From Lysobacter sp. (GTDB lineage: Bacteria; Pseudomonadota; Gammaproteobacteria; Xanthomonadales; Xanthomonadaceae): DNA of 64,000 nt. Under the pieces are notes generated by a model that made no database searches, was not told the origin of the DNA, and saw only the letters and a list, made by a program, of their open reading frames with translations. The stretch's first letter is position 1. Every line of letters begins with the position of its first letter. Shown piece after piece: positions 13,168-42,890 of the stretch. The stretch covers positions 94,509 through 158,508 of the forward strand of contig JBIQLI010000001.1 of assembly GCA_044464395.1 (NCBI GenBank), read 5' to 3'. Both the position numbers and the translations under genes were made by a program.

Positions 13168-13250
13168 CGGGTCCGGCGGGCGTGGGGCATCGGCGCATCC
13201 TAGCAGCGCGGCCCGCTAGAATCGCGACATCCCTTGCACCTGGACGCCCC

Positions 13251-14615
13251 ATGCCCGCAGCCCTGCACGTCGTGATCCTTGCCGCCGGAGAAGGCAAGCG
13301 GATGAAATCCGCCCTGCCCAAGGTCCTGCTGCCGGTGGCGGCGCGGCCGATGCTGGCGCACGTCATCGACACCGCGCGCGCGCTGCAACCAGCGGGCATC
13401 CACGTGGTCTACGGCAACCGCGGCGACCAGGTGCGCGCCGCCTTCGCCGGCCAGCCGGACCTGGCCTGGGCCGAGCAGGCGCAACAGCTCGGCACCGGCC
13501 ACGCGGTGCAGCAGGCGCTGCCCGCGATTCCCGACGACGCGCGGGTACTGGTGCTGTACGGCGACGTCCCGCTGATCACGGCCGGCACATTGCGCCGCCT
13601 GCTTGCCGAGCAGGGCGCGCTGGCCGTACTGGCGGCGGACCTGGCCGACCCGACCGGCTACGGCCGCATCGTCCGCGACGCCAGCGGACACGTCGCGCGC
13701 ATCGTCGAGCACAAGGATGCCGACGCCGAACAGCGCCGCATCGGCCTGGTCAACACCGGGGTGATCGCCTGCGACGCCGGCAGGTTGCGCACCTGGCTGT
13801 CCGCGCTGCGCAACGACAACGCCCAGGGCGAGTACTACCTCACCGATGTCTTCGAACAGGCCGCGGCCGAATACTGCGCGGCCGAAGTGGTGGTCGTGGA
13901 CGATCCGGTCGAGACCGAGGGCGCCAACGATCCCTGGCAGCTCGCCCAACTGGAGCGCGCGTTCCAGCAGCGCCAGGTGCGCGCGCTGTGCGCGCAGGGC
14001 GTGCGCGTGGCCGATCCGGCGCGGCTGGACATCCGCGGCCGCGTCACCGCCGGCAGCGACGTGGAAATCGACGTGGATGTCGTGCTGGAAGGCGACGTCG
14101 TGCTCGGCGACGGCGTGAGCGTGGGCCCGTTCTGCCGCCTGCGCGACGTGCACCTTGCGGCGGGCACGATCGTCCGCGCGCATTGCGACCTGGAGGGCGC
14201 CCGCAGCGACGGGGCCGCCACCATCGGCCCGTTCGCGCGCCTGCGCCCGGGCACGGTGCTGGCCGACGGCGTGCACGTGGGCAACTTCGTCGAGACCAAG
14301 AACACCGCGATGGGCCCGGGCAGCAAGGCCAACCACCTGACCTACCTGGGCGACGCGAACATCGGTGGCAAGGTCAACATCGGCGCCGGCACCATCACCT
14401 GCAACTACGACGGCGTGCACAAGTCCACCACCACGATCGGCGACGGCGCGTTCATCGGCTCGAACAGCTCGTTGGTGGCGCCGGTGACCATCGGTCGCGA
14501 CGCGACCATCGGCGCAGGCTCCGTGATCACCCGCGACGCGCCCGATGCCAAGCTTACGGTCGGTCGCGCCAGGCAGGAAACCATCGACGGCTGGAAGCGT
14601 CCGCGCAAGGACTGA
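13251..14615 (+). CDS. glmU: Bifunctional UDP-N-acetylglucosamine diphosphorylase / glucosamine-1-phosphate N-acetyltransferase
   Basis: ATG 13251 ([26 protein letters not shown]…), with C-terminal left-handed beta-helix hexapeptide repeats. Confidence 0.92.
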
Positions 14616-14825: not shown

Positions 14826-14993
14826 ATGAAGTCGAAGCTCATCGCCCTTGCTGCCCTGGGCTTGCTCGCCACGAGCAGTGTCGTGGCCGCGCGCATGGTC
14901 TGCGTCTCGGAGAACTGCACGTTCTACCCGGACGGCCATTACAGCTGCGGCAAGACCCATTGCACCTACTATCCGTCCACGGAGGCCAATTGA
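14826..14993 (+). CDS. Small secreted 4-Cys peptide, family 1, copy 1 (precursor 55 aa)
   Basis: GGAGA lies 5 nt upstream of the ATG. Sequence: MKSKLIALAALGLLATSSVVAA/RMVCVSENCTFYPDGHYSCGKTHCTYYPSTEAN. It has a Sec-type signal peptide and is paralogous to the next two ORFs. Confidence 0.6.
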   Translation: MKSKLIALAALGLLATSSVVAARMVCVSENCTFYPDGHYSCGKTHCTYYPSTEAN

Positions 14994-15160
14994 TGAAGAA
15001 GGCAATCCTGTCCCTGTTCGCCGCCAGCATCCTCGCCTCCGGCGCCGCGATGGCGATCAAGTGGGAGTGCACCGACTGCACCCTGTACCCCGACGGCCGC
15101 ATCGTCTGCAAGCACTGCGTCGGCACCGACGGTGCGACGACCTCCCGGGCGCCGAACTGA
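14993..15160 (+). CDS. Small secreted 4-Cys peptide, family 1, copy 2 (precursor 55 aa)
   Basis: GGAGG lies 7 nt upstream. The ATG overlaps the previous stop (TGATG). Sequence: MKKAILSLFAASILASGAAMA/IKWECTDCTLYPDGRIVCKHCVGTDGATTSRAPN. Confidence 0.65.
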   Translation: MKKAILSLFAASILASGAAMAIKWECTDCTLYPDGRIVCKHCVGTDGATTSRAPN

Positions 15161-15170
15161 GGAACACACG

Positions 15171-15332
15171 ATGAAGCACAAGATCGCAATCTGCATGATC
15201 GCGCTGGGCATGTTCGCCACCGGGTCCGCAATGGCCATGAAGTGGAACTGCAAGAACTGCACGCTCAATCCGGATGGCACCATCCACTGCGAAACCTGCA
15301 CGGGCAAGACCGGCGAGGTCGAGCGCAACTGA
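15171..15332 (+). CDS. Small secreted 4-Cys peptide, family 1, copy 3 (precursor 53 aa)
   Basis: GAGGA lies 7 nt upstream. Sequence: MKHKIAICMIALGMFATGSAMA/MKWNCKNCTLNPDGTIHCETCTGKTGEVERN. Confidence 0.65.
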   Translation: MKHKIAICMIALGMFATGSAMAMKWNCKNCTLNPDGTIHCETCTGKTGEVERN

Positions 15333-15345
15333 GCATCGCCCACCC

Positions 15346-15363
15346 GGGCCGGCGCGCCGGCCC
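15346..15363 (+). terminator. Perfect 18-nt GC palindrome (putative attenuating or stabilising hairpin) after the peptide genes
   Basis: GGGCCGGCGCGCCGGCCC, 14 nt after the copy-3 stop. There is no T-tract, so it is probably not a full terminator. Confidence 0.4.
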
Positions 15364-15407: not shown

Positions 15408-15881
15408 ATGCATCCGATGAAGGCCGTGCTGGGCGCGGCGCTGTTGTTGATCCCGTTGCTCGCACGCGCGGAAGTCGTCGAGGAGCAGGTCCACCTGCTT
15501 GCCCGCCAGTCGGCCGTCCTGTCCGACCACGGCATCCAGGTGCCCAAGGTGTACGTGCTGAGCGCCTCGGGCGAGGTCATCTTCGAAGGCAAGGCGTCGA
15601 AGTTCCAGGCCTATGAACCGATCCTGGAGGCGCTGCGTTCGGGCAAGACCAGCGGCCGCAAGGACGCGCACCTGCTGTCGCTGCTGGAGGACGCCGGATT
15701 CGAGCCGAGCGCCACGGGCGTGCCGGTGATGGTCTCGATCGAGATCGGGAAGAGCATCGGCGTGTGCCCGTCGTGCGATCCGTACTACCCGGACCTGGCC
15801 AGGTTCATCCGCGAACACGATCCGGACGCGCGCTGGCTGCGATTGGTGTTCGAAAAGAACGACTACAAACCCGAGGGCTGA
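15408..15881 (+). CDS. Secreted CPxC-motif protein of unrecognised family (paralog of 34969..35466)
   Basis: AAGGAGA lies 7 nt upstream. Signal peptide MHPMKAVLGAALLLIPLLARA/EVV. It shares PKVYVL and …VSIEIGKSIGVCPSCDPYYPDLARFIRE blocks with the lipoprotein at 34969..35466. Confidence 0.7.
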   Translation: MHPMKAVLGAALLLIPLLARAEVVEEQVHLLARQSAVLSDHGIQVPKVYVLSASGEVIFEGKASKFQAYEPILEALRSGKTSGRKDAHLLSLLEDAGFEPSATGVPVMVSIEIGKSIGVCPSCDPYYPDLARFIREHDPDARWLRLVFEKNDYKPEG

Positions 15882-15891
15882 CCGCCGGCGC

Positions 15892-17151
15892 ATGGCGATC
15901 CCCAAGCCGAACCGGAGTTTCGACCTCGACCCGCCCGCGGCGGGGCGCCGGCGTGCGCCGGCCTGGCGCCGCTGGTGGCCCGCATTGGCGGCGGCACCGC
16001 TGGCGCTGGTCCTGCTCGGCTGGGCGCTGCTGGGTGGCGCACGCGAGCCCGGCCCCGGCACGCGGCTGGCGGAAGTCATGCAGGGGGACCTGGTGCTGGG
16101 CATCGACGGCTACGGAAAGCTCGTCCCGGCCGACCTGGTGTCGATCGGCTCGCGCAGTGGCGGACGGATCGCGCGCATCGAGCGGCGCACAGGCAGCAGG
16201 GTCGGCAAGGGCGAGGTGATCGTCGCGCTGGAGAACGCCGAGCTGTTGCAGAAGCTTCGCGAGGCGGAAAAGTCGCTCGCCCAGGCCAAGGTCGACCTGA
16301 TGCGCAACCGCGCGGACATGACCGGGTCGCAACATCGCGCGCGTTCCCGCCTGGCCGACCTGCAGGGCGAACTGCGGGTCTCGCGGCTGGAGATCGAAGG
16401 CCTGCGCAAGTTGGCGGAAGCGCGCATCGTCACGCCCATCGAGCTCGAGAAGAGCATCGTCCACGGGCAGAGCCTGGAGCGGCAGATTGCAGATGCCGGC
16501 GACGAGTTGCGACGCCTGGAGGCCCTTGGGCTGGCGGCGACGGACGCGGACCGCGCGGTCATGGACGCCCTGTCCAAGGACGTGCAGCGCCTGCGCGAGG
16601 AAGTCGCCGACCTGGAAGTGCGGGCACCGCGCGACGCGACCATCTTCGACATGCCGGCCACCCTGACGGTCGGTAGCCAGGTCGAGCCCGGCGCCGTGGT
16701 GGCCACACTGGCAACAGGCGACGGGCTCGCGGTTGAGCTGTGGATCCCGGCCAGCCGTTCCGGCGAGGTCGCCCCGGGGCAGCCCGCGACCGTGGAGCTT
16801 GCCGGCAAGCAGTACGAGGCCACGGTCGCGCGGGTCGATCCGCAGGTCGTGCGCGGCGAGCTGAAGGTGCTGCTACCGGTCGAAGGGCTTGCGGCCGGCA
16901 GCGTCTTCGCAGGGCAACCGGTGACCGGCCGCATCATCACAGGCCGGCTGCACGACGCGATCTATGTCGCGCGCCCGGCCAATGCCACGCCGCATCACGC
17001 CGGCAGCGTGCTCGTCGCCACCGGTGACCCAGATGCGCCCGCGCGCCGCGAAGTCCTTTTCGGCGCCGCCGACGCCGAGCATGTCCAGCTCCTCGCCGGT
17101 GCGATTGCCGGCGAACGCATCTTCCTCGACGCCGCGGCGGCGGCGGACTAG
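15892..17151 (+). CDS. HlyD/MacA-family periplasmic adaptor (membrane fusion protein)
   Basis: N-terminal TM segment, lipoyl-like RIERRTGSRVGKGEVIVALEN, a long coiled coil, and a beta-barrel C-terminal part. Confidence 0.85.
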   Translation: MAIPKPNRSFDLDPPAAGRRRAPAWRRWWPALAAAPLALVLLGWALLGGAREPGPGTRLAEVMQGDLVLGIDGYGKLVPADLVSIGSRSGGRIARIERRTGSRVGKGEVIVALENAELLQKLREAEKSLAQAKVDLMRNRADMTGSQHRARSRLADLQGELRVSRLEIEGLRKLAEARIVTPIELEKSIVHGQSLERQIADAGDELRRLEALGLAATDADRAVMDALSKDVQRLREEVADLEVRAPRDATIFDMPATLTVGSQVEPGAVVATLATGDGLAVELWIPASRSGEVAPGQPATVELAGKQYEATVARVDPQVVRGELKVLLPVEGLAAGSVFAGQPVTGRIITGRLHDAIYVARPANATPHHAGSVLVATGDPDAPARREVLFGAADAEHVQLLAGAIAGERIFLDAAAAAD

Positions 17152-17162
17152 ACGTCCATTCC

Positions 17163-17858
<696 letters not shown>

Positions 17859-17867
17859 GGCACCGCC

Positions 17868-20234
17868 ATGCCGCACGCCCTGCACGACGCGATCCGCTTC
17901 TGGAAGGCGAGTCCCGGGCGCGGGCTGTTGTTGCTGGCCAGCTGCGCGCTGATCGTGGCGCTGGCGGCGGTCAACACCGTGGTGCTGCGCTCCTCGCTCT
18001 GGTTCACGCCGCCGGGCGTGGATCCGGGGATGCACTTCCTCACCTTGGGCCAGCACACCCCGGAAGGGCGCTTCGAACCGGTCGCGCTGCAAGACCTGGA
18101 CAGGTTGCGGTCGCTGGTCGCGCCCGGTGGATTTGCCGCATACGGCCGTTCCGATGGCGAGGTGCGCCTGGGCGACGCCTCCTGGCCGGCGCAACCGGTG
18201 GCCCTGGTCAGCGACCGATTTTTCGAAGTGCTCGGCGTGGATGCCATGATCGGCGAGACGCCCGGCGCCGACGCGCATGGAGCGATGCTCAGCCACGCAT
18301 TCTGGTCCGGTCCGCTTCACTCGGATCCTTCCATTGTCGGCAAGAGCATCAACATCGCCGGCGCGGACATTCGCGTGGTCGGCATCGCGCCGCCCGCGTT
18401 CAAGGGGCTGGGAGACCTGGCGCCGGTCGCCTGGATTCCGGACAAGTACACGCCGGCGTTCTTCGACCTGCTGTTGCCGCTGCCGCAGGAGATCGTGGAT
18501 TCGGCGAAGGCCGAGTTCGCGACCCTGGCGCCGTTCTTCTTCGGCATCGTCGACGCCGGCAAGGTGGATCCGGACGATCCGCGGCTGACCCGCTGGAAGG
18601 TCCGCGACACCCGCGAGATCTCGCTGTCCACGCCGACGGGGCCATTGAAGCTTGGCTTCGATGCCACCGGCCATGCCAGCGCGGTGTATCCGCGCATCGA
18701 CATCACGCCGCAGCGCACCGCCACCGTCGCCCGATACCTCGCGATCCTCGGCCTGCTCAACGCCGCGCTCGCGTTCCTTGCGCTGCTGAACCTTGCTTCG
18801 TTCTGGTCGGCGCGCACCAGCGAGCGTGCGCAGGAACTGCAGTGCATGGTGGCGGTGGGCGCGCGGCGCCGCGACCTGGCCGGCATGTTCCTGTCCGAGG
18901 CCCTTCCGTTCCTGGCCCTGGTGTTGCTGCTGTCGGTGCCGCTTGCCTACGGCCAATTCCACCTGGTGCGCCAGCTGCAACCGATGCAGGACTACCTGCA
19001 AGGCAGGGGCGTCGCCTTGTCCGCGCGCGATTTCCTTCCGGGACTGGGCCTCATTGTCGCGGTCGGCGTGGTGGCCGTGGCCTGGCCTTGGCGCTACCTG
19101 CGCGAAAGCGTCCTGCGCAGCCGTTCGATCGGTGCGACCGCCGCCACCGAGCGGGGCCGCAAGCTGGCGCATGCCCTGCAATGGGCACTGTCCGCCTTCG
19201 TGGCGGGCGCCGTGGGGCTGAGCCTGCTCGTCGCGCTGCGCCTGAACGCGGCGCCCTGGGGCGGCAGCGCCGATCCGGTGCTGGTGACGGCGCCGGAACA
19301 CGGCCTCGAAGCCGCATCGGATCTTGCGCGCAGGCTCGGGCTGGACGAGGACGCCATGGCCGTCATCCGGACCCCGCCGCTCACCCGTTTGCAGGTCCGC
19401 GCCGAGCTCCATGCGAACGAAGCCGGCGATAGCGTCCGCCATACGATCTACTTCAACGCGGCTTCGCCGCAGGCTTTCGACCTGCTCGGCGTCCCGCTCC
19501 TGGCCGGGCGCACCTATGCGCCGCACAGCGAGAACGAGGTCGTGTTGAGCGCCAGCGCCGCGGCCTTGTTCGGCGGTACCGCGGTGGTCGTCGGCAGACA
19601 CCTCACCCGCGCGGATCCGTTCGACGCCAGCCAGGACACCAGCGTGCTGGTCACCGGGGTGGTCGGGGACATCCACTACGACAGCGTGCGCACGCCTGCC
19701 GAAGCGGTGGCGTACGTGCCGCCGGAATCGTCCCTGTCCGGGATGACCGTGCTGCTGCCGCACCGGTTCCTCGCTTCCGGCGCGCTGGACCACGCGCACA
19801 GCATGTCGGACAAGCGCGCGGACCAGGTGCGCACCGAACTGCTGCTGGCCGGGTTCACGTTCTGCTATGCGGTGCTCGCGCTGGGCCTGATGGGACTGGG
19901 CCTGTTGTCCCTCGCCAGGACCCGACTGCAGCAACACGGCCGCGAACTGGGCCTGCGCGCGGCGCTGGGGGCGAGCCTGGGCCAGGCCGCGCGCGAGTTC
20001 ATGCGCGCGCCCGCGCTCGTTGCGGTCGCGGCGGCCTTGCCGGTCGTCCTGCTGTTCGTGCTGGCCCTGGCTGCCAATGCCGTGCCGATGCCATTGGCGC
20101 AGCCGCTCGATGCGGCCTGGGTCGGCCTCGGGATGGCCGCGGTGCTGCTGCTGTTCGGGGTGACGCTGTTCGGGTTCGCGCGGCGCAAGCTGGCACGGTT
20201 CAACCTGTCCGAACTGTTGCGCGCGGAGCGCTGA
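17868..20234 (+). CDS. Fused double FtsX/MacB-type ABC permease (788 aa)
   Basis: Two successive units, each with a TM segment, a large periplasmic domain and a 3-TM FtsX domain. The gap to the ATPase gene is 9 nt. Confidence 0.85.
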   Translation: MPHALHDAIRFWKASPGRGLLLLASCALIVALAAVNTVVLRSSLWFTPPGVDPGMHFLTLGQHTPEGRFEPVALQDLDRLRSLVAPGGFAAYGRSDGEVRLGDASWPAQPVALVSDRFFEVLGVDAMIGETPGADAHGAMLSHAFWSGPLHSDPSIVGKSINIAGADIRVVGIAPPAFKGLGDLAPVAWIPDKYTPAFFDLLLPLPQEIVDSAKAEFATLAPFFFGIVDAGKVDPDDPRLTRWKVRDTREISLSTPTGPLKLGFDATGHASAVYPRIDITPQRTATVARYLAILGLLNAALAFLALLNLASFWSARTSERAQELQCMVAVGARRRDLAGMFLSEALPFLALVLLLSVPLAYGQFHLVRQLQPMQDYLQGRGVALSARDFLPGLGLIVAVGVVAVAWPWRYLRESVLRSRSIGATAATERGRKLAHALQWALSAFVAGAVGLSLLVALRLNAAPWGGSADPVLVTAPEHGLEAASDLARRLGLDEDAMAVIRTPPLTRLQVRAELHANEAGDSVRHTIYFNAASPQAFDLLGVPLLAGRTYAPHSENEVVLSASAAALFGGTAVVVGRHLTRADPFDASQDTSVLVTGVVGDIHYDSVRTPAEAVAYVPPESSLSGMTVLLPHRFLASGALDHAHSMSDKRADQVRTELLLAGFTFCYAVLALGLMGLGLLSLARTRLQQHGRELGLRAALGASLGQAAREFMRAPALVAVAAALPVVLLFVLALAANAVPMPLAQPLDAAWVGLGMAAVLLLFGVTLFGFARRKLARFNLSELLRAER

Positions 20235-27631: not shown

Positions 27632-27675
27632 GCCTGGCCCGGGCGGGAATCCGCGCCGATGCAACGTTCCAGGCT

Positions 27676-27691
27676 TGGCACGCATCCTGCA
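27676..27691 (+). promoter_or_regulatory. Sigma54 (-24/-12) promoter
   Basis: TGGCACGCATCCTGCA compared with consensus TGGCACG-N4-TTGCA. GG is at 27677-78 and GC at 27689-90, with exact 12-nt register. The first ATG downstream is the adaptor gene start at 27731. Confidence 0.8.
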
Positions 27692-27730
27692 TGTACGGGA
27701 GGCAAGCCCCCCGCAGGACACCCCCGCCGC

Positions 27731-29011
27731 ATGAGCATCCGCGACACCTCCGCCCAGGACATCCCGGTCGGCAACGCCGCCGCCCGCCGCGCCCGCCAGC
27801 GCCGGCACTGGCTGCTGTATGCCGGTGGCGGCGCGGCGTTGCTGCTGGTGGGCGCCTGGCTGGTGTCGGGCTGGGCCGCCGGCAGCCGCTCGGTGAGCGG
27901 CGAGCGGGTGCGCATCGCCACCGTCACCCGTGGCGACCTGGTCCGCGACATTTCCGCCGAGGGCCGGGTGATCGCCGCCAACAGCCCCACCCTGTACGCG
28001 GTCGCCGGCGGCACCGTCACCCTGCACGTGGTGGCCGGCGACAAGGTGGAGAAGGGCACCGCGCTGGCCGAGATCGACAGCCCCGAGCTGCGCAGCCGCC
28101 TCGCCCAGGAGCAGGCGACGCTGGCCAGCGTCGAGGCCGAGGCCAGCCGCGCCGCGCTGGATGCCCAGGTCACCCGATCCAGCGCGCGCCAGCTCCTGGA
28201 AGAAGCCGAACTCGCCCGCCAGGCCGCCGCCCGCGACCTGGAGCGCTACCGCCGAGCGTTCGAGGGCGGCGCGGTCGCGCAGATCGACGTGGCCCGCGCC
28301 GAGGACACCCTCAAGGCCGCCGAGATCGCACTGGCCAACGCCCGCGTCGCCAGCGGCCTGCAGGGCAAGGGGGCAGGGCTGGACCTGCGCAACAAGCGCC
28401 TGCAGGCCGATCGCCAGCGCGCGGTCGTGGCCGAACTGCAACGCCAGGTGGACGCGCTCACCCTGCGCGCGCCGTTCGACGGCCAGGTCGGCCAGGTGCA
28501 GGTGCAGCAGCGCGCCAACGTCGCCGAGAACGCGCCGGTGCTGAGCGTGGTCGACCTGTCGCGCTTCGAGGTCGAGATCCGGGTCCCGGAAAGCTTCGCC
28601 CGCGACCTGGCCATCGGGATGCCGGCGCAACTGCGCAGCGGCAGCGGCGAGCCGTTCCCCGCCGAGGTCTCGGCGGTGTCGCCGGAAGTGGTGAACGGCG
28701 AGGTCACCGCGCGCCTGCGCTTCACCGACAGGCAACCGCCCGGCCTGCGCCAGAACCAGCGGTTGTCGGCGCGGATCCTGCTCGACACGCGCAAGGACGT
28801 GCTGATGGTCGACCGCGGCCCGTTCCTGGAACAGGGCGGCGGCCGCAGCGCGTACGTGATGGACGGCGATGTCGCGGTGCGGCGCCCGGTCGAGACCGGC
28901 GCCAGCAGCCTGGGCTACGTCGAGATCGTCTCCGGCGCGCAGGAAGGCGACCGCATCGTGGTGTCCGGCAGCGACCAGTTCGGCGACGCGGAACGCGTCG
29001 TCGTCAACTAA
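27731..29011 (+). CDS. HlyD/MacA-family periplasmic adaptor
   Basis: ATG 27731 ([10 protein letters not shown]…), a TM segment ([19 protein letters not shown]), lipoyl motif [18 protein letters not shown], and a coiled coil. Confidence 0.88.
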
Positions 29012-29021
29012 CCAAAAAGAC

Positions 29022-29044
29022 AGCCGACCACGGGTCGGCTCTAC
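29022..29044. repeat. REP-like element inside the operon (adaptor-ATPase intergenic)
   Basis: AGCCGACCACGGGTCGGCTCTAC. Confidence 0.75.
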
Positions 29045-29056
29045 GGGAGAAGCAAC

Positions 29057-29773
29057 ATGCTCGAGATGCGCCAGGTCAGCAAGGTCTACCGCACCGAACT
29101 CGTCGAAACCCATGCGCTGCGCGCGCTCGACCTGCACGTGCGCGAAGGCGAGTTCGTCGCGGTCACCGGCCCCTCGGGCTCGGGCAAGACCACCTTCCTC
29201 AACATCGCCGGGCTGCTGGAGACCTTCACCGGCGGCGAGTACCTGCTCGACGGCCAGGACGTGCAAGGGCTGTCGGACGATGCGCGCTCGAAGCTGCGCA
29301 ACCAGAAGATCGGCTTCATCTTCCAGAGCTTCAACCTGATCCCGGACCTCAACCTGTTCGACAACTGCGACGTGCCGCTGCGCTACCGCGGCATGGCCGC
29401 GGCCGAGCGCAAGCGCCGGATCGAGGAAGCGCTGGGCCAGGTCGGCCTGGGCTCGCGCATGAAGCACTACCCGGCCGAGCTCTCGGGCGGCCAGCAACAG
29501 CGCGCCGCGATCGCACGCGCCCTGGCCGGCAGCCCGCGCCTGCTGCTCGCCGACGAGCCCACCGGCAACCTCGACTCGCAGATGGCGCGCGGGGTGATGG
29601 AGCTGCTGGAGGACATCAACGCCAAGGGCACCACCATCGTGATGGTCACCCACGACCCGGAGCTGGCCGCGCGCGCCCAGCGCAACGTGCACATCGTCGA
29701 CGGCATGGCCACCGACCTGAGCGTCGAGCCGAGCCTGCGCCGCGTCGCCAGCGAAGCCCTCGCCAACGGCTGA
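29057..29773 (+). CDS. ABC transporter ATP-binding protein (MacB/LolD type)
   Basis: GPSGSGKTT, LSGGQQQR and [12 protein letters not shown]. It is a close paralog of 41941..42669 (the YRTELVETHALR…GEFVAVTGPSGSGKTTFL block is shared). Confidence 0.92.
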   Translation: MLEMRQVSKVYRTELVETHALRALDLHVREGEFVAVTGPSGSGKTTFLNIAGLLETFTGGEYLLDGQDVQGLSDDARSKLRNQKIGFIFQSFNLIPDLNLFDNCDVPLRYRGMAAAERKRRIEEALGQVGLGSRMKHYPAELSGGQQQRAAIARALAGSPRLLLADEPTGNLDSQMARGVMELLEDINAKGTTIVMVTHDPELAARAQRNVHIVDGMATDLSVEPSLRRVASEALANG

Positions 29774-29785
29774 GGAGCCCACGCC

Positions 29786-31102
29786 ATGTTCGCCTACTAC
29801 TTCGACCTGGCCTTGCGCAGCTTCCGCCGCAACAAGGCCCTGACCACGCTGATGGTGCTGGCGATCGCGCTGGGCATCGGCGCCAGCATGACCACGCTCA
29901 CCGTGTTCCACGTGCTGTCCGGCGATCCGCTGCCGGGCAGGAGCGGCCAGCTCTATTACGTGCAGTTGGACGCCGGCTCGATGGACGGCTACCAGCCCGG
30001 CGAGGAGCCGGACACCCAGCTCACCCGCTATGACGCGGAGGAATTGCTGCGGCAGGCGAAGGGCGACCGCCAGGCGCTGATGACCGGTGGCAGCGTCGCG
30101 GTGACCCCGGCCAAGCAGGGCCTGGATCCGTTCTACAGCGACGTGCGCTACACCAGCGCGGATTTCTTCGCGATGTTCGGCACCCCGTTCCTTTACGGAC
30201 AGGGCTGGACCGGCGCGGAGGACGTGCGCCGCGAACGCGTCGTGGTGTTGTCCAGGGCCCTGAACGACAAGCTTTTCGGCGGCGCCGACAGCACTGGCCG
30301 GACCGTGCGCCTGGACCAGTCGGATTTCCGCGTCGTCGGCGTGCTCGACGACTGGCGCCCGACCCCGCGCTTCTACGACCTCAACTCCAACCGCTACGGC
30401 GCCGCCGAGCAGGCGTTCCTGCCGTTCTCCACCTCGCGCGACCTGAAGATGTCGCGCAACGGCAGCATGAACTGCTGGCGCAACGCCAGCCAGAGCGACG
30501 ACCCCGAGGGCGAGACCGGCGTCAACGCGCCCTGCACCTGGCTGCAATACTGGGTGGAACTGGGCACCCCGGCCAAGGCCGACGCCTACCGGCAGTACCT
30601 GCGCAACTACTCCGACCAGCAGCGCGCCGGCGGGCGCTTCGAGCGGCCCACCAACGTGCGCCTGCGTTCGGTGATGGAGTGGCTGGACTTCAACGAAGTG
30701 GTGCCGGGCGACGTGCGCCTGCAGGTATGGCTGGCGTTCGGCTTCCTGGGCGTGTGCCTGCTCAATACGGTCGGCCTGCTGCTGGCGAAGTTCCTGCGCC
30801 GCTCGAGCGAAATCGGCGTGCGTCGCGCGCTGGGCGCCTCGCGCCGGGCGATCTTCGCCCAGTGCCTGGTCGAAGCCGGCACCGTCGGCCTGGCCGGCGG
30901 CCTGCTCGGCCTCGGGCTGGCCCAGCTCGGCCTGTGGGCCGTGCGCCAGCAGCCGGTGAGCTACGCGGACCTGGTCCACCTGGATCCGCTGATGCTCACG
31001 ACCACCTTCGTGCTCGCGATCTTCGCCAGCGTGCTGGCCGGCCTGGTGCCGGCGTGGCAGGCCTGCCAGGTCACCCCCGCCATGCAGCTCAAGTCGCAGT
31101 AA
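29786..31102 (+). CDS. MacB/FtsX-type ABC permease, type A (438 aa)
   Basis: TM1, a periplasmic domain and a 3-TM FtsX domain. It shares the N-terminal block …GDPLPGRSGQLYY with 33647..34963 and 40634..41944. Confidence 0.88.
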   Translation: MFAYYFDLALRSFRRNKALTTLMVLAIALGIGASMTTLTVFHVLSGDPLPGRSGQLYYVQLDAGSMDGYQPGEEPDTQLTRYDAEELLRQAKGDRQALMTGGSVAVTPAKQGLDPFYSDVRYTSADFFAMFGTPFLYGQGWTGAEDVRRERVVVLSRALNDKLFGGADSTGRTVRLDQSDFRVVGVLDDWRPTPRFYDLNSNRYGAAEQAFLPFSTSRDLKMSRNGSMNCWRNASQSDDPEGETGVNAPCTWLQYWVELGTPAKADAYRQYLRNYSDQQRAGGRFERPTNVRLRSVMEWLDFNEVVPGDVRLQVWLAFGFLGVCLLNTVGLLLAKFLRRSSEIGVRRALGASRRAIFAQCLVEAGTVGLAGGLLGLGLAQLGLWAVRQQPVSYADLVHLDPLMLTTTFVLAIFASVLAGLVPAWQACQVTPAMQLKSQ

Positions 31103-31123
31103 CGACTTCCCCGGAGACCCCAC

Positions 31124-32350
31124 ATGGAACTGCGCCCCATCCTTTCCACGCTGCGCCGGCACAAGACCGCGGCCGCGTTGATCGTGCTCGAGATCGCGGT
31201 CAGCTGCGCCATCATCTGCAACGCCCTGTTCCTGATCGGCGGGCGGCTCGAGCGCATGGACCGGCCGACCGGAATGGCCGAGGACGAGATCGTCCGCATC
31301 CAGCTCACCGGCATCGGCCAGGACGAGAACGCCGCCGCCCTCACGGCAACCGACCTGGCCGCGCTGCGCGCGTTGCCAGGGGTCAAGTCGGCCAGCGCCA
31401 CCAACATGGTCCAGTTCGGCGGCAGTTCCTGGAACACAGGCGTCAACCTGAGCCCGGACCAGACCCAGATCAGCCTCAGCGCGGCGATGTACCTGGGCGA
31501 CGAGAAGCTGCCTGAAACCATGGGCCTGACCCTGGTGAAGGGCCGCACCTTCAACCCGGACGAGATGATCGATTTCGAGACGGCCAACGCACCCGGCAGC
31601 GACGTGCAGATCCCGTCCGTGATCGTCACCAGCGCCATGGCCGAAAAGCTGTGGCCCGGCGAGGATCCGCTGGGCAAGGTGATCTACGGCGGCGACGAGA
31701 ACGGCATCAAGGTCGTCGGCGTGGTCGACAAGCTCGCCCGGCCGAACGACATCGGCGGGCCGGACGCCTACTACTACTCGATGATCTACCCGATCAAGGT
31801 CCCCTACACGGTCGGCGGCAACTACCTGATCCGGGTCGATCCGGCGCGCCGCGCCGAGACCCTGAAGGCCGCCGTGGAGGTGCTCGAGCGCAACGGCCCG
31901 AACCGGATCATCCTCGACCAGCAGACGCTCGAGGAAATGCGCGCCGCCAATTACCAGTCCGACAAGGCGATGGCCTGGATGCTGGCGACCGTGTGCGTGC
32001 TGCTGCTCGTGATTACCGCGCTGGGCATCGTCGGGCTGGCCAGCTTCTGGGTCGCGCAGCGGACCAAGCAGATCGGCGTGCGCCGCGCGCTGGGCGCGAC
32101 CCGCGGCCAGATCCTGCGCTACTTCCAGACCGAGAACTTCCTGCTGGCGACGCTCGGCATCGTGATCGGCATGATGCTCGCGTTCGGCCTCAACCAGCTG
32201 ATGATGGAACGCGCCTCGCTGCCGCGCCTGCCGGCGCTGTACCTGCCGATCGGCGCGATCGTGCTATGGCTGCTCGGCCAGCTCTCGGTCCTCGGCCCCG
32301 CCCGCCGCGCCGCCGCCGTCCCCCCCGCCGTCGCCACCCGCAGCGTCTGA
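31124..32350 (+). CDS. MacB/FtsX-type ABC permease, type B (408 aa)
   Basis: Same architecture as type A. The N-terminus resembles 32443..33642 and 39426..40631 (…LRRHK…IVLEIAVSCAI…). Confidence 0.88.
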   Translation: MELRPILSTLRRHKTAAALIVLEIAVSCAIICNALFLIGGRLERMDRPTGMAEDEIVRIQLTGIGQDENAAALTATDLAALRALPGVKSASATNMVQFGGSSWNTGVNLSPDQTQISLSAAMYLGDEKLPETMGLTLVKGRTFNPDEMIDFETANAPGSDVQIPSVIVTSAMAEKLWPGEDPLGKVIYGGDENGIKVVGVVDKLARPNDIGGPDAYYYSMIYPIKVPYTVGGNYLIRVDPARRAETLKAAVEVLERNGPNRIILDQQTLEEMRAANYQSDKAMAWMLATVCVLLLVITALGIVGLASFWVAQRTKQIGVRRALGATRGQILRYFQTENFLLATLGIVIGMMLAFGLNQLMMERASLPRLPALYLPIGAIVLWLLGQLSVLGPARRAAAVPPAVATRSV

Positions 32351-34968: not shown

Positions 34969-35466
34969 TTACTCCGCGGCGGGAGTCGACCGCATCTCGC
35001 GCGTGCCGAGGAAAACGTCACGGTATGCGACGCTTGCCTTCAGCGAGTTGAAATATCGGTCCAGTTCCTGCTGGGTCGAATCGCAGTACGGGCAGGTACC
35101 GATGCGCGCGGGGGTCACGCGGACGACGCAATAGTCGGCGCCGCAATCACGCCAGCGCGCGAAATCCACGCCTTCGTCGAAGACGCATTCGCCCAGCACC
35201 GCAACCTTGTCGGCCAGGCGGCCCTTGCTGCCAGTCTCGATCGCGAGCGCCGCGCCCGGTGAATAGCCCAGCTCGCTGCTTGCGAATTCGCCGTGTTCGA
35301 ACACGTACACCTGCGGCGTTTGCGGCTCGAGACCACACTCGCGGAACGCGTCGGGATGGATGAAGACTTCGGTGGCCTCGGCAGCGGAGGTCGTGGCGGG
35401 CTGCGGCGGCGGCGAACAGGCGGAAAGCCCGACGATGAGCAGGGCCAGGCAACGGATCGAGTGCAT
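34969..35466 (-). CDS. CPxC-motif lipoprotein of unrecognised family (paralog of 15408..15881)
   Basis: An AGGA-type SD precedes ATG 35466. Lipobox: MHSIRCLALLIVGLSA/C. It shares PQVYVF and …VVRVTPARIGTCPYCDSTQQELDRYFNS blocks with the paralog. The gap to the permease gene is 5 nt. Confidence 0.7.
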   Translation of the reverse strand: MHSIRCLALLIVGLSACSPPPQPATTSAAEATEVFIHPDAFRECGLEPQTPQVYVFEHGEFASSELGYSPGAALAIETGSKGRLADKVAVLGECVFDEGVDFARWRDCGADYCVVRVTPARIGTCPYCDSTQQELDRYFNSLKASVAYRDVFLGTREMRSTPAAE

Positions 35467-35560
35467 TTCCGATTTCCTTTCCATGGAAAGTGGAGGGGCC
35501 GGGACCAAGCGAGGTCGCCTCGGACAGGCCCCGGCGTTCCTTCGGAGGGGCGCGGAGCAA

Positions 35561-35590
35561 AATCTAGTGATAATGGGAGGGAGCGGTCAA
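35561..35590 (-). promoter_or_regulatory. Putative sigma70 promoter for the lipoprotein-permease operon
   Basis: On the minus strand: TTGACC (35590-35585), N18, TAGATT (35566-35561). Confidence 0.35.
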
Positions 35591-35605
35591 CCTGAAAGCG
35601 GTTCC

Positions 35606-36955
<1,350 letters not shown>

Positions 36956-36957
36956 CG

Positions 36958-38283
36958 ATGCGCCTGCGCCAGCGCATCCCGCTGAGCCTCCAATTCGGCG
37001 CGTTGGCGCTGCTCTACCTGCTCGCGGGCGCCACCCTGGCGGTGGTGCTGGCGCGCTGGCTTGCCCCGGTGTACGCAGCGCTGCTCGCGACCGCGTTGCT
37101 CGCCCCGCTGCTGCTGTACCACGCGCGGCAACTGTTCGCGCCGATGAACGCCCTGTTCCGCGCGCTCGCCGGCAGCGTCGCCAGCTTCCGCGACGGCGAC
37201 TTCTCCTTCAACCTCACCTGGGCCGGGCACGACGAACTGGGCGAGCTGGTCGCCAGCCACAACGCGCTGGGCGACGTGCTGCGCGAGCAGCGCCAGGGCC
37301 TGGTGCAGCGCGAACTGCTGCTGGACACCATGGTCCAGAACACGCCGGTGGCGATGGTGCTGGTGGATCCGTCGCGACGCGTGGTGCTGGCCAACCTGTC
37401 CGCGCGCAAGCTGCTCGGCGACGGGCACAAGCTGGAAGGCCTGTCGTTCGACGCAATTCTCGAAGCCACGCCGCCGGCCGTGCAGGAGGCGTTCGAACGC
37501 GGCGGCGACGGCATGTTCACCCTCGGCGAATCCGGCGAGGACGACAACGGCAACGAGGACATCTACCACCTCGCGCGGCGCCACTTCCGCCTCAACGGCC
37601 GCCGCCACGAGCTGGTGCTGCTGCGTCAGCTCACCGCCGAGCTGCGCCGGCAGGAAGTGCAGACCTGGAAGAAGGTGATCCGGGTGATCAGCCACGAACT
37701 GAACAACTCGCTGGCGCCGATCGCCTCGCTGGCCCACTCCGGCGCGGAGCTGCTGCGCCGCGGCCAGACCGAGCGCCTGCCGACCGCGCTGGCCACCATC
37801 GAGGAACGCGCCCGGCACCTGGAAGGCTTCATCCGCGACTACGCGCGCTTCGCCAAGCTGCCCGCGCCGCGGCTGCAGCCGGTGGCCTGGAACCGCTTCA
37901 TCGCCCAGCTGCGCAGCCAGGTGGAGTTCGCCGCGCAGGGCGCCATCGACGACCGCATCGGCCGCTTCGACCCGGCCCAGCTCGAGCAGGCGCTGCTCAA
38001 CCTGCTGAAGAACGCGCACGAAGCCGGCGGCGACCCGGCCGCCGTGGCCCTGCACCTGCGCCGCGCCGGCAACGGCTGGCGGATCGACGTGCTGGACCGC
38101 GGCACCGGCATGAACGAGGCCGTCCTGGCCAACGCGCTGCTGCCGTTCTATTCCACCAAGCGCCATGGCACCGGCCTGGGCCTGGCGCTGGCCCGCGAGA
38201 TCGCCGAGGCGCACGGGGGGCGGATCTCGCTGGTGAACCGGGAGGGTGGGGGGTTGAGTGTTTCGATCTTTTTGCCGGATTGA
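36958..38283 (+). CDS. Sensor histidine kinase (2 TM - HAMP - PAS - HisKA - HATPase)
   Basis: ATG lies 2 nt after the regulator stop. H-box VISHELNNSLAPI, N box LLNLLKNAHEA, G boxes DRGTGM and GTGLGLAL. Confidence 0.9.
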   Translation: MRLRQRIPLSLQFGALALLYLLAGATLAVVLARWLAPVYAALLATALLAPLLLYHARQLFAPMNALFRALAGSVASFRDGDFSFNLTWAGHDELGELVASHNALGDVLREQRQGLVQRELLLDTMVQNTPVAMVLVDPSRRVVLANLSARKLLGDGHKLEGLSFDAILEATPPAVQEAFERGGDGMFTLGESGEDDNGNEDIYHLARRHFRLNGRRHELVLLRQLTAELRRQEVQTWKKVIRVISHELNNSLAPIASLAHSGAELLRRGQTERLPTALATIEERARHLEGFIRDYARFAKLPAPRLQPVAWNRFIAQLRSQVEFAAQGAIDDRIGRFDPAQLEQALLNLLKNAHEAGGDPAAVALHLRRAGNGWRIDVLDRGTGMNEAVLANALLPFYSTKRHGTGLGLALAREIAEAHGGRISLVNREGGGLSVSIFLPD

Positions 38284-38931
38284 TCAGAGAACCGGTTCGA
38301 CCAAGTGTTCCAGCGCCTGCAGCTCGCGCGTCCCCTGATACAGCTGTCCATCCACGATGAATGCCGGGACGCTCTCGATGCCCAGGCGCTTTGCCTCCGC
38401 AATGTCGGCATCGACGGCCGCACGGCTTCCGGTGTCTTCCATGCAGGACGAAAAGGCCGCGACGTCGGGCACGCCGGACGACCGTGCCATGGGGCTGAAG
38501 TCGCCTTCCAACTCCGGCAGGTCGGCGGAAAACAGCTTGGCCTGGAAGGCCTGGCGAACGCCCTGTTGCCCGGCACATTTGGCCGCGATCGCTGCGGCGT
38601 AGGCGGCTGCATGGATTTGCGTCAGGGGGTACTCGTAACGGATCACGGACAGCCGGCCCGGGTGCCGGGCCACCAGCGTCGACAGCTTCTCGTCCAGGTC
38701 CTTGCAAAAGGGACACTGGTAGTCGGAAAAAAGGACGATCCTGGCGCCCGCCCCGTCGGGCCCCATCGCCGGAATCCGGTTGTCGGCAAGCCTTGTCCAT
38801 CCGCTTACGGGCCGTGAGCCTGGAGCCGCGGTTGGCATCAATTCACGGCGTACCGCGACAACGGTCATCACGATTGCGCAGATCACAAGCACGCCAGTGG
38901 TGGCGTTCTGCGCCAAGCGGGAAGCATTCAT
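38284..38931 (-). CDS. Membrane-anchored DsbA-family thiol:disulfide oxidoreductase
   Basis: N-terminal TM segment (GVLVICAIVMTVVAV), active site FSDYQCPFCKD, and C-terminal …GIESVPAFIVDGQLYQG (cis-Pro region). Confidence 0.85.
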   Translation of the reverse strand: MNASRLAQNATTGVLVICAIVMTVVAVRRELMPTAAPGSRPVSGWTRLADNRIPAMGPDGAGARIVLFSDYQCPFCKDLDEKLSTLVARHPGRLSVIRYEYPLTQIHAAAYAAAIAAKCAGQQGVRQAFQAKLFSADLPELEGDFSPMARSSGVPDVAAFSSCMEDTGSRAAVDADIAEAKRLGIESVPAFIVDGQLYQGTRELQALEHLVEPVL

Positions 38932-38947
38932 GGTCTCTCCATCTGGC

Positions 38948-38970
38948 GCATCCCGGCGAGGCCGGGATGC
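38948..38970 (-). terminator. 10-bp-stem hairpin between the peptide genes and the dsbA-like gene (putative attenuator)
   Basis: On the minus strand: GCATCCCGGC-CTC-GCCGGGATGC, 10 nt after the peptide stop. No T-tract follows. Confidence 0.4.
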
Positions 38971-38979
38971 GTTTTGCGA

Positions 38980-39162
38980 TCAGCGTTCCTTGCAACTGCA
39001 CCCAGACGCGCTCGCAGTGCATCCGTGGGTGCAATAGCAGGTGGTGTTCCCACCTTCGCATCGGTTGTAGAGAATCGACTGCCTTGGCGCGGCGTGCGCG
39101 GAAATGAGGCCGCACGCCAGGATCAGGGAAACCGAAACTCCGTTGACGATTTTCCGTGTCAT
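38980..39162 (-). CDS. Small secreted 6-Cys peptide, family 2, copy 2 (precursor 60 aa)
   Basis: GGAGA lies 6 nt upstream of ATG 39162. Sequence: MTRKIVNGVSVSLILACGLISAHA/APRQSILYNRCEGGNTTCYCTHGCTASASGCSCKER. Confidence 0.6.
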   Translation of the reverse strand: MTRKIVNGVSVSLILACGLISAHAAPRQSILYNRCEGGNTTCYCTHGCTASASGCSCKER

Positions 39163-39184
39163 GGGCTGTCTCCGGGTTTCCTGG

Positions 39185-39370
39185 TTACGCACAAGTGCAG
39201 GAGGTTTCATCGGCCGAGCAGCCGCCTTTGCATTCGCACTTGCCCTTGCCATCGGTGCTTTCGCATTTCGCCTTGAGCAGGGAGGCGCCCATGTGGGGGG
39301 TCGCAAAGGCGGCGGTGGCGCCCAGGCAGATGATCGAAATCGCGATCAGGTTCACCATTTTCCTTGGCAT
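39185..39370 (-). CDS. Small secreted 6-Cys peptide, family 2, copy 1 (precursor 61 aa)
   Basis: AAGGAGA lies 6 nt upstream of ATG 39370. Sequence: MPRKMVNLIAISIICLGATAAFA/TPHMGASLLKAKCESTDGKGKCECKGGCSADETSCTCA. Confidence 0.6.
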   Translation of the reverse strand: MPRKMVNLIAISIICLGATAAFATPHMGASLLKAKCESTDGKGKCECKGGCSADETSCTCA

Positions 39371-39425
39371 GCAGGATCTCCTTTCAGGTTGTTGCGGGAC
39401 AATCGTCCGCTTGTCGGCGGACGGG

Positions 39426-40631
39426 CTAACGCCTCTTGACGGCTTGTGCAGGGTCGATCGCGGTCGCCTTGAGTGAAGGCCCCAGGCTTGAGAGCTGCAC
39501 GACAAAAACAATGAGAAGTGCACACATCGCGACGGAAGACGGCGCCAATGCTTGTACTTCCAGGACCTTCATCAGTACGCGATGCAAGGCCAGCGCCGCG
39601 GGTGCGCCGAGAAGGATGGAGATGATCGCGAGCGCGGCGCTTTCGGCCTGGAATCCCAGGATGATCCTGGATTTCGTGGCGCCCAGTGCCCTTCGTATCG
39701 CGATCGAGCGGCGCGACCGCCTGACGCGGAACGTGGCCAGTCCGCCGATCCCGATGGCAGTCACCAGCAGGAGGGATAGCGTGGCTCCAAGCAGCAAGGT
39801 GGACTTTTCGACATCCCGTTTGAAAAACGCAGAGCGGGATTCCGCGAAGGTCCTGGCTTTTGCGCCGCCGGCAAATGCGGAAAGCCGCTCCTCCATCGCC
39901 CGCATGGTCCGTCCCCGAAGTGGCCCCATCGTCCGGAATAGAAGCACTCCGCGGTCAACAGACGGCACTTCGGGCAGCAGCATCGAATAGTGATTGACGC
40001 TTCCGGCGCCTTGGACGGGGTGTGGGCGCAGCAGTCGCTTGACGACCCCGACCACTCGCAGCGATGCGCCGGAGTCGGTGAACACCAGGCGTCCGGTCGC
40101 ATCTGGTGTACCGAACAGTTGTCGAGCCAGGGATTCGGTGAGGATCGTTGCGGCTGGACCCGCTGCGCCCTCCGATCCCTGTTCGACGTACTCGTTGGGA
40201 AGGAAGTCCCGCCCTGCCACGAGCTCCAGGCCCATGGTTCCGATGGCGCCAGGTCCGCCCTCGAATTGGCTGACCGATATGCCGAGGGCCTGGTCATCGG
40301 TACCGGGTCCTGGAAAGATCGAGCCCACCAGATCGGAACCAAATGGCAGGGCGCGAACCCACGCCGCGGAGGCAACCCCGGGGACCGACCTGGCTTGCAG
40401 GATCGCTTCCCCGGAAGTAAAGCCTTGTCGTCCCGTGCCGAAGTCCTCGAGCTCCACGATGCCCACCACGCCCTCCCCGATGCCGCTGGGCTCGCTCATC
40501 AGCGAAAAGCTGCTGGCAACGACGCTCAGCACATTGGCCGCAACCGCGAAGGTCAGCGCGAGTTCCAGGACCAGCATGGCAGTCGTCAATTTGCCGGCGA
40601 GCAGTGCCTGGACGATGGGATGGCGGCGCAT
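39426..40631 (-). CDS. MacB/FtsX-type ABC permease, type B (401 aa)
   Basis: ATG 40631 lies 2 nt after the upstream permease stop. MRRHPIVQALLAGKLTTAMLVLELALTFAVA…, with a C-terminal FtsX domain. Confidence 0.85.
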   Translation of the reverse strand: MRRHPIVQALLAGKLTTAMLVLELALTFAVAANVLSVVASSFSLMSEPSGIGEGVVGIVELEDFGTGRQGFTSGEAILQARSVPGVASAAWVRALPFGSDLVGSIFPGPGTDDQALGISVSQFEGGPGAIGTMGLELVAGRDFLPNEYVEQGSEGAAGPAATILTESLARQLFGTPDATGRLVFTDSGASLRVVGVVKRLLRPHPVQGAGSVNHYSMLLPEVPSVDRGVLLFRTMGPLRGRTMRAMEERLSAFAGGAKARTFAESRSAFFKRDVEKSTLLLGATLSLLLVTAIGIGGLATFRVRRSRRSIAIRRALGATKSRIILGFQAESAALAIISILLGAPAALALHRVLMKVLEVQALAPSSVAMCALLIVFVVQLSSLGPSLKATAIDPAQAVKRR

Positions 40632-40633
40632 GC

Positions 40634-42669: not shown

Positions 42670-42890
42670 GCGTCCTCCGCGGGATGCGTCCATGCATCCG
42701 GTGGGCAGACATTAACCCGCCGCGAAGCCCGCGCAAAGACTTTGAACAGGGGTCACGCCCACCTGCATGAACGGTTCGTCGCGCAACGCGCGAATTTAGT
42801 TTCGGCCTCACGGGAATTCGACCCGCGCTCGCTCAAAGTCGTAGCTGCCGGCACATCCCCCCACGCCGGTTTCCAAGAGGAGAGAACGCG

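Follow-up and report, generated by a model that had tools for sequence, protein, structure and literature searches.

Exported CxxC proteins beside four-cysteine peptide and MacB-type transporter genes in Lysobacter: a rare family of probable permuted thioredoxins

P0001 and P0002 are two small exported proteins with a late CxxC motif, encoded in a 64,000-nucleotide stretch of Lysobacter sp. DNA (contig JBIQLI010000001.1, positions 94,509 to 158,508; hereafter the window). We analyzed both proteins, their homologues and the genes around them. Our results showed that the two belong to one family, whose genes recur beside genes of secreted mini-peptides and of MacB-type transporters. Comparison of sequence profiles suggested that this family is probably a circular permutant of the thioredoxin fold. 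As to function, we favour with modest confidence a dedicated periplasmic thiol-disulfide oxidoreductase, which would act on the four-Cys peptides encoded together with it.

One rare family of exported proteins

An earlier note, made from the letters of this DNA, had proposed the two open reading frames (ORFs) as paralogous envelope proteins of no nameable family. Both ORFs proved to be real, one on each strand (Table 1), and P0001 is preceded by a ribosome-binding site, GGAAAGGAG, 6-8 nt 5' of its ATG. Export, which the note had also claimed, was borne out by a Sec signal peptide in P0001 and a lipobox in P0002. The early Pro block and the late CxxC block that it had described as common to both proteins were found as well. 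The CxxC is followed by 34 residues in P0001 and by 37 in P0002, in line with the 30-40 estimated before. Mature P0001 has 136 residues, and mature members of the family have about 135.

The two proteins are 29% identical. BLASTP between them aligned the CxxC block only (E 0.002), and the Smith-Waterman alignment was weak but colinear across both blocks (z 4.4-5.3, with 2 of 2000 shuffles reaching the score). When the alignments of the two subfamilies were compared with hhalign, they matched over 105 columns with a probability of 95.8% (P 7.4e-9). On this profile evidence, P0001 and P0002 are therefore genuine distant homologues, as had been supposed.

Neither protein could be placed in a known family. 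Scans of both against Pfam and NCBIfam returned only sub-threshold noise (zinc-ribbon, FmdE treble clef, and Glutaredoxin at E 0.24). Neither matched the curated family of bacteriocin transport accessory proteins (PedC/BlpG type) in NCBIfam or Pfam, nor the DsbA family (PF01323/PF13462) in Pfam, for which a mature protein of 136 residues is too small.

The family is also very rare. The two mature proteins were combined into a profile, and an exhaustive hmmsearch of 1.84 billion representatives with it yielded 19 proteins at E <= 1e-3. Seventeen of them, P0002 included, have about the size of P0001 and P0002, and the other two are long multi-stretch matches. Word-indexed homologue searches recovered only the query and one 84% relative, and their profile version gave four proteins. 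No more paralogues were found by tblastn of P0001 and P0002 against the own genome (2.45 Mb, 70% G+C), the family was absent from the 60 relatives searched with P0001, and a search of genome contigs for loci related to P0002 alone found none. Only 3 of 401 genomes of the order carry the family, and two divergent members from other genomes were added in this way. One member is annotated as a hypothetical protein in a metagenome-assembled genome (MAG) of Luteimonas sp. In conclusion, the family is unnamed and lies within no curated family.

Conservation was examined in 20 aligned members, the two divergent ones included. Only three positions are invariant: the early Pro (P46) and the two Cys of the CxxC motif (C120 and C123). 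Two subfamilies can be distinguished. The P0001-like proteins, with P0001 as the founding member, are Sec-exported, contain just two Cys in the mature protein and carry the motif G-x-C-x-x-C-x-x-Y-Y-P ... EKNDY. The P0002-like proteins are lipoproteins with extra Cys and the motif C-G-x-D-Y-C-V-V ... C-x-x-C-x-x-x-Q ... L-D-x-Y-F. P0002 itself has four further Cys (C44, C93, C108 and C113), which are conserved within its subfamily. C108 and C113 (CGxDYC) are invariant across the lipoproteins. C44 (in ECGLE, or xCG(L/I)E) co-occurs with C93 of the linker helix, and both are missing in P0009 and P0012. Because they are present or absent together, C44 and C93 are suggested to form a structural disulfide, and the alignment suggests two structural disulfides besides the CxxC in the lipoprotein subfamily.

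Profile comparison with the thioredoxin fold

The strand, CxxC and helix had been read in the earlier note as thioredoxin-like, with the guess that the fold might be permuted. As far as sequence methods allow, profile comparison supported both ideas. When the unpermuted family profile was compared with all PDB sequences, thioredoxins made up six of the seven best matches. The B. subtilis thioredoxin 2gzy was matched twice and in swapped order, family residues 30-81 aligning with thioredoxin 53-101 and family residues 126-162 with thioredoxin 27-63. The N-terminal half of the family resembled the C-terminal half of thioredoxin (cis-Pro, two strands and helix), and its C-terminal half resembled the N-terminal half of thioredoxin (strand, CxxC, helix and strand). 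The element order is not the canonical one: the half with the cis-Pro equivalent comes first and that with the CxxC second, and the family became colinear with thioredoxins only after in-silico permutation.

For this permutation, each family sequence was cut after residue 60 and the C-half was placed before the N-half. With the permuted profile, 17 of 21 PDB matches were thioredoxin-superfamily proteins. The matches to StoA (3erw, E 0.0019) and to the thioredoxin-like protein 2m72 (E 0.008) were each a single colinear alignment running from the CxxC to the cis-Pro strand. As the reference for hhalign, we aligned 30 real thioredoxins from related genomes. The permuted profile scored 39.9 against this alignment (probability 90.5%, P 1.3e-6), compared with 28.6 for the unpermuted profile, 27.8 for the C-half only (thioredoxin 30-65) and 23.3 for the N-half only (thioredoxin 69-101, P 3.6e-4). 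The null, in which the C-half was joined to a column-shuffled N-half, gave 29.2 ± 1.5 with a maximum of 35.5, and none of 60 shuffles reached the true score. With TlpA/CcmG-like paralogues from the same genome and their relatives as the reference, the permuted profile scored 30.0-32.7 over 97-124 columns (null 23.2 ± 0.4). A scan of cut points showed that the score is gained with any cut that places the CxxC half first. In the sequence alignments, the invariant Pro (P46/P51) falls on the cis-Pro of thioredoxin (IPT) and of StoA and 2m72, and the family CxxC falls on the CGPC/CPPC of thioredoxins and StoA. A ferredoxin fold of the HMA type (MxCxxC) was also considered and was rejected, the profile matches being thioredoxins and not HMA proteins.

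An AlphaFold2 model of P0001 was calculated from a 19-sequence alignment and reached a predicted local distance difference test (pLDDT) of 91.7 and a predicted template modelling score of 0.87. A first model from three sequences had been discarded (pLDDT 62, with meaningless Foldseek matches). The elements of the second model are E3-10, E26-30, E36-41, H49-57, H66-74, (H79-82), E86-92, CxxC, H102-116 and E121-128 (E, strand; H, helix). Strand E86-92 leads through a loop to C99-x-x-C102 (model numbering), and helix H102-116 begins at the second Cys. In this model, the order of elements is that of thioredoxin read from another starting point, about residue 60: helix, strand, CxxC-helix, strand, chain end, strand/loop, Pro-strand, strand and helix. 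The chain of a family member would thus start at the segment that precedes the cis-Pro loop in TlpA/ResA-like thioredoxins and continue through the cis-Pro, two strands and the last helix. A linker helix would then join it to the usual N-terminal half of thioredoxin, with a strand, the CxxC at a helix N-terminus, that helix and a strand.

Several results weigh against a permuted thioredoxin. The structural check that the earlier note had asked for did not support it: when the pLDDT 91.7 model was searched against the PDB with Foldseek, the best E value was 0.47 and the 50 matches listed included no thioredoxin. The top matches, about 45 residues of DUF59 and NifU-like domains at E 0.5-0.7, were not taken as homology. 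A permutant would be expected to give a partial Foldseek match, and the three-dimensional arrangement may differ from that of a plain permuted thioredoxin. Single permuted sequences matched no Pfam thioredoxin model and their PDB search was likewise empty; only profiles were sensitive enough for the match. Among the Pfam models of the thioredoxin clan, only Glutaredoxin was hit (E 0.14-0.24, below the cut-off). The N-half profile alone gave no significant match in the PDB (best E 0.065). In view of the Foldseek result, we rate the permuted fold as probable and no higher than that. Circular permutations occur among thioredoxin-like folds (PMC3091736); the kind is therefore known, but the present family and its context are not.

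Neighbouring peptide and transporter genes

According to the earlier note, each of the two genes lies immediately upstream of MacB-type transporter genes, in a cluster with Cys-rich secreted peptides. The first part held for P0002, and it had to be corrected for P0001, where an HlyD-type adaptor gene comes first. The second part held for the P0001 cluster but not for the P0002 operon, in which a Cys-rich peptide gene is lacking. Features of the window are collected in Table 1.

Table 1. Coordinates of P0001, P0002 and neighbouring features in the window.
Feature	Position	Strand	Remarks
P0001	15408..15881	+	157 amino acids; ORF and ribosome-binding site
P0001 Sec signal peptide	15408-15470	+	cleavage ARA/E
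P0001 invariant Pro46	15543-15545	+	block V-P46-KVYVL
P0001 CPSC active-site motif	15765-15776	+	GVC120-PS-C123
P0002	34969..35466	-	165-amino-acid lipoprotein
P0002 lipobox LSAC, Cys17	35416-35418	-	LSA-C17
P0002 invariant Pro51	35314-35316	-	block T-P51-QVYVF
P0002 CPYC	35083-35094	-	GTC125-PY-C128
Three tandem signal-peptide mini-peptide genes	14826-14993, 14993-15160, 15171-15332	+	ORFs; proposed substrates
HlyD-type periplasmic adaptor	15892..17151	+	HlyD_3, HlyD_D23
ATP-binding cassette (ABC) ATPase, MacB type	17163..17858	+	ABC_tran, 2.2e-33
788-amino-acid MacB-type permease	17868..20234	+	two FtsX domains and MacB periplasmic core domains
Two MacB_PCD/FtsX half-permease genes, directly 3' of P0002	33647-34963, 32443-33642	-	domain matches
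Convergent adaptor / ABC ATPase / FtsX / FtsX operon	27659..32350	+	
Divergent sigma54-dependent NtrC-type response regulator and histidine kinase	35606..38283	+	
Third peptide/MacB cassette	38284-42693		with conventional membrane-anchored DsbA-like gene 38284-38931 (matches PF01323/PF13462)

Homologous loci from other sources showed the same surroundings. Seven distinct loci from metagenomes or MAGs were retrieved with upstream flanks longer than about 500 bp, and in every one of them one to three genes for four-Cys mini-peptides with signal peptides lie directly upstream of the family gene (peptide genes upstream: L002-4, L005, L008, L010/11, L076, L077, L078 and L079). Where the contig continues downstream, either an adaptor, an ABC ATPase and a double-FtsX permease or an FtsX pair follows. 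In loci with enough flank, a family gene thus usually sits between mini-peptide genes and MacB-type transporter genes.

Two arrangements, those of P0001 and P0002 in the window, were found again on unrelated metagenome contigs. In L002-4, L008 and L077, the order is peptides, CxxC protein, adaptor, ATPase and a permease of about 809 amino acids; that of L002 and L008 (808-809 amino acids) is the same as the 788-amino-acid permease of the window. In L005 (the Luteimonas MAG), L078 and L079, the order is NtrC, peptide, lipoprotein and FtsX pair, and a convergent ATPase and adaptor are also present in L005 and L078. The P0002 homologues P0005, P0006, P0009 and P0012 each have a peptide gene directly upstream; an FtsX half-permease pair also follows P0005, P0006 and P0012, and a divergent Sigma54_activat regulator also adjoins P0005 and P0006. 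L010/11 has a peptide gene and a lipoprotein gene followed by a truncated unannotated ORF, and L076 has two peptide genes before the family gene and then the contig end. A disulfide-type peptide and an ABC exporter in the same operon occur in the P0001 cluster, L002-4, L005, L008, L010/11, L077, L078 and L079.

Fifteen complete mini-peptides were found upstream of family members. Each of them carries a signal peptide and exactly four Cys, and the first and last Cys spacings are equal (n = 1, 2, 4 or 5) around a loop of 9-12 residues, often with a YPDG-type turn. They lie at 14826-15332 in the window, L002 639-989, L008 148-282, L076 266-860, L077 221-682, L005 7689-7844, L078 1674-1823, L010 941-1138 and L079 1015-1212. 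In the window, the mature peptides are one C-x4-C-x9-C-x4-C and then two C-x2-C-x9-C-x2-C around a (Y/N)PDG turn. Spacing class and CxxC-protein subfamily go together. Peptides beside P0001-like genes are C-x2-C-x9/10-C-x2-C or C-x4-C-x9-C-x4-C with the turn (Y/N)(P/A/S)(D/E)G, and peptides beside P0002-like genes are C-x-C-x9-C-x-C or C-x5-C-x12-C-x5-C. Because equal outer Cys spacing is required by a disulfide ladder and not by a metal knuckle, these patterns argue for beta-hairpins with a C1-C4/C2-C3 disulfide ladder. When the whole genome was scanned for four-Cys ORFs of this pattern, only the three genes of the P0001 cluster and one off-frame artefact were found, and the recurrence of such ORFs beside the family is therefore not due to chance.

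A perfect GC-rich palindrome without a T-tract, GGGCCGGCGCGCCGGCCC, was observed at 15346-15363, in the gap that separates P0001 from the last peptide gene. Conceivably, it acts as an attenuator or as a hairpin that stabilizes the transcript, and in this way sets the ratio of peptide to enzyme. The P0001 cluster directly follows glmU (13182-14615) in the window. In the Luteimonas MAG (L005 3344-15441), the cassette with its NtrC/kinase genes and convergent ATPase and adaptor genes occupies the gap between glmU and glmS, an interval that seems to be a landing site for such cassettes.

The P0002 operon is without an ATPase and an adaptor, which are probably supplied by the convergent operon at 27659-32350, and the divergent NtrC-type regulator and kinase likely regulate it. 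The best same-genus match to its permease is only 35-38% identical, and the genus has no close orthologue; the lipoprotein therefore travels with its permeases as an accessory cassette. In the neighbouring third cassette, a conventional DsbA-like gene takes the equivalent role, and this supports the view that every cassette comes with a disulfide catalyst of its own. A link to the adjacent Cu-ATPase/MerR module was rejected, since this module is absent from all homologous loci.

Proposed function, alternatives and significance

We propose that P0001 would reach the periplasm by the Sec route and P0002 as a lipoprotein. There, the CxxC/cis-Pro site would form or shuffle the C1-C4 and C2-C3 cross-strand disulfides of the Sec-exported four-Cys beta-hairpin peptides. 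Once folded, the peptide would enter the co-encoded MacB-type tripartite pump, which would expel it across the outer membrane. As recycling partner, the enzyme would use DsbB in the case of an oxidase and DsbD in that of an isomerase, and the genome encodes both. Judged from its established behaviour, housekeeping DsbA tends to misform the non-consecutive ladder pattern. A wider reading is offered only tentatively. The family may be an undescribed, active permuted thioredoxin, absent from Pfam and NCBIfam, that forms the oxidative-folding part of a new Gram-negative Sec/MacB peptide secretion system and whose subfamilies have co-diversified with the Cys-spacing classes of the peptides.

Some observations speak against a dedicated oxidoreductase. 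The CxxC dipeptide is highly variable (PS, LS, GP, AA, PG, PA, PP, NP, NA, PY, LY, PF, TF, EP, EG, AI and DT), and a tuned redox enzyme would not usually vary so much at this place. No peptide gene is present in the P0002 operon here, only about 140 bp (35467-35605) separating P0002 from the divergent NtrC-type gene, and a genome-wide scan of the 94%-complete assembly found no C-x-C-type peptide ORF elsewhere. Either P0002 has been orphaned by the loss of its peptide, or it serves the peptides of other cassettes. The divergent member in L067 (528-2408 of that locus, G040:C5; TVPQVFLF ... CAIC) is followed by an HlyD-type adaptor and an ABC ATPase, but the approximately 530 bp upstream of it contain no evident four-Cys peptide gene and instead a divergent peroxiredoxin-like ORF. 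The most divergent member, in L068 (1489-2010, G400:C89; NVPQLYVF ... CDTC, E 1.2e-4), is not beside a transporter; its neighbours are a thymidine kinase-like ORF on one side and a UvrD/Rep-like helicase on the other. Some members of the family may therefore serve other purposes.

Three other explanations were weighed, here in falling likelihood. The protein could be an immunity or sequestering protein that binds the producer's own four-Cys bacteriocin-like peptide and protects the envelope, with the CxxC as a structural disulfide or a reducing trap. We consider this unlikely, though it agrees with several facts. The gene comes directly after the peptide genes, in the slot of immunity genes in many bacteriocin operons, and no other candidate immunity gene was seen in these short operons. 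One subfamily consists of lipoproteins, as do the LanI-type immunity proteins. The pairing of subfamilies with peptide types (n = 2/4 for P0001-like and n = 1/5 for P0002-like proteins) is also in its favour. However, invariance is confined to the thioredoxin catalytic pair and the equivalent of the cis-Pro, and the retention of P0002 without a cognate peptide gene is at odds with a strict immunity role and with a strict folding role alike.

A non-catalytic accessory of the pump is less likely still, and we give it little credence. Such a protein would deliver the peptide to the MacB periplasmic domain, gate the pump or switch it by the redox state of the CxxC. It would suit the tight coupling to the transporter genes (10 nt from the P0001 stop codon to the HlyD-type adaptor gene and 5 nt from P0002 to the permease gene) and the co-inheritance of P0002 with its permeases. 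Most MacB-type clusters, two in the window included, nevertheless work without such a protein, and the conventional DsbA in the corresponding place of the third cassette points to redox chemistry rather than pump mechanics.

Finally, a metal-binding domain, which the earlier note had kept as an alternative, is very improbable. It would be zinc-ribbon-like or a Cu/Zn chaperone and would load or strip the metal of Cys-rich metallophore peptides. In its favour are weak Pfam matches (E 0.04-0.05), in which the CxxC block hit treble-clef and zinc-ribbon models, the Cx4C...CxxC of P0002-like members, the two CxxC motifs in many peptides and the nearby Cu-ATPase/MerR module, but the Cys of P0001-like proteins number only two, neither His nor Met is conserved family-wide, the always symmetric peptide spacing (CxC, CxxC, Cx4C or Cx5C) is incompatible with conserved metal knuckles, and the copper module is not conserved. 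The family alignment does not contain the four conserved metal ligands of a zinc ribbon or treble clef, and a Cx4C...CxxC zinc site in P0002 was not accepted as characteristic of the family, since P0001-like proteins lack it.

Known systems offer partial parallels to a dedicated oxidoreductase. PedC, BdbA and BlpG(ST) are thioredoxin-like CxxC proteins in bacteriocin/ABC-transporter operons and are required for correct disulfides (PMC4919988). In the systems of pediocin PA-1, sublancin 168 and thermophilin, as in the present loci, an exported CxxC protein is encoded beside disulfide-peptide and ABC exporter genes. These proteins are Gram-positive, have the canonical thioredoxin-like order and belong to recognised InterPro/TIGR families, and their peptides carry double-glycine leaders and leave through a peptidase-ABC exporter. 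In contrast, P0001 and P0002 match no family and show a permuted order, and their loci combine Sec signal peptides with a Gram-negative MacB-type tripartite pump. The family is thus probably a functional analogue of PedC, BdbA and BlpG on a permuted scaffold and in a Gram-negative Sec and MacB setting.

At the level of sequence, the best colinear matches after permutation are members of the Redoxin/AhpC-TSA clan (TlpA, ResA, StoA and CcmG), StoA being the PDB match given above, and the CcmG-like paralogues of the own genome aligned with hhalign P of 5.8e-5 to 1.8e-4. These proteins are also extracytoplasmic and share with the family the CxxC and, in the alignment with their cis-Pro strand, the pattern '...V.P.xYxLxxxG.v', together with the strand before it. 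Unlike them, P0001 and P0002 have a permuted chain, lack the N-terminal beta-hairpin and stay below Pfam thresholds, and the known proteins of this kind serve mainly as reductases for cytochrome c or spore maturation and not as accessories of peptide export. Classical thioredoxin (PF00085) likewise has its CxxC at a helix N-terminus after a strand, and its cis-Pro76 aligns with the invariant Pro. It differs from P0001 and P0002 by their swapped halves, extra N-terminal strand, linker helix, periplasmic location and variable CxxC dipeptide.

The heat-stable enterotoxin II (STII) of E. coli is exported by Sec, receives its disulfides from DsbA and is expelled by MacAB-TolC. A Sec-exported Cys-rich peptide, periplasmic disulfides and a MacB-type tripartite pump would thus be common to STII and the system proposed here. 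The DsbA used by STII is a housekeeping enzyme that is not encoded with the pump, whereas the P0001 system has a dedicated, unrelated-looking CxxC protein within its operon.

The invariant P...CxxC signature and the fixed neighbourhood provide a search handle for more such peptide loci. If our interpretation is true, the family would represent a natural catalytic thioredoxin whose halves were swapped in evolution, and it would inform how the most widespread redox fold tolerates rewiring. The loci would then be compact modules of four to seven genes, in which hairpin peptides are combined with a folding enzyme and an adaptor/ABC/MacB pump. By means of such modules, Gram-negative soil and water bacteria would appear to make and export disulfide-stapled peptides, which are possibly antimicrobials or signals.

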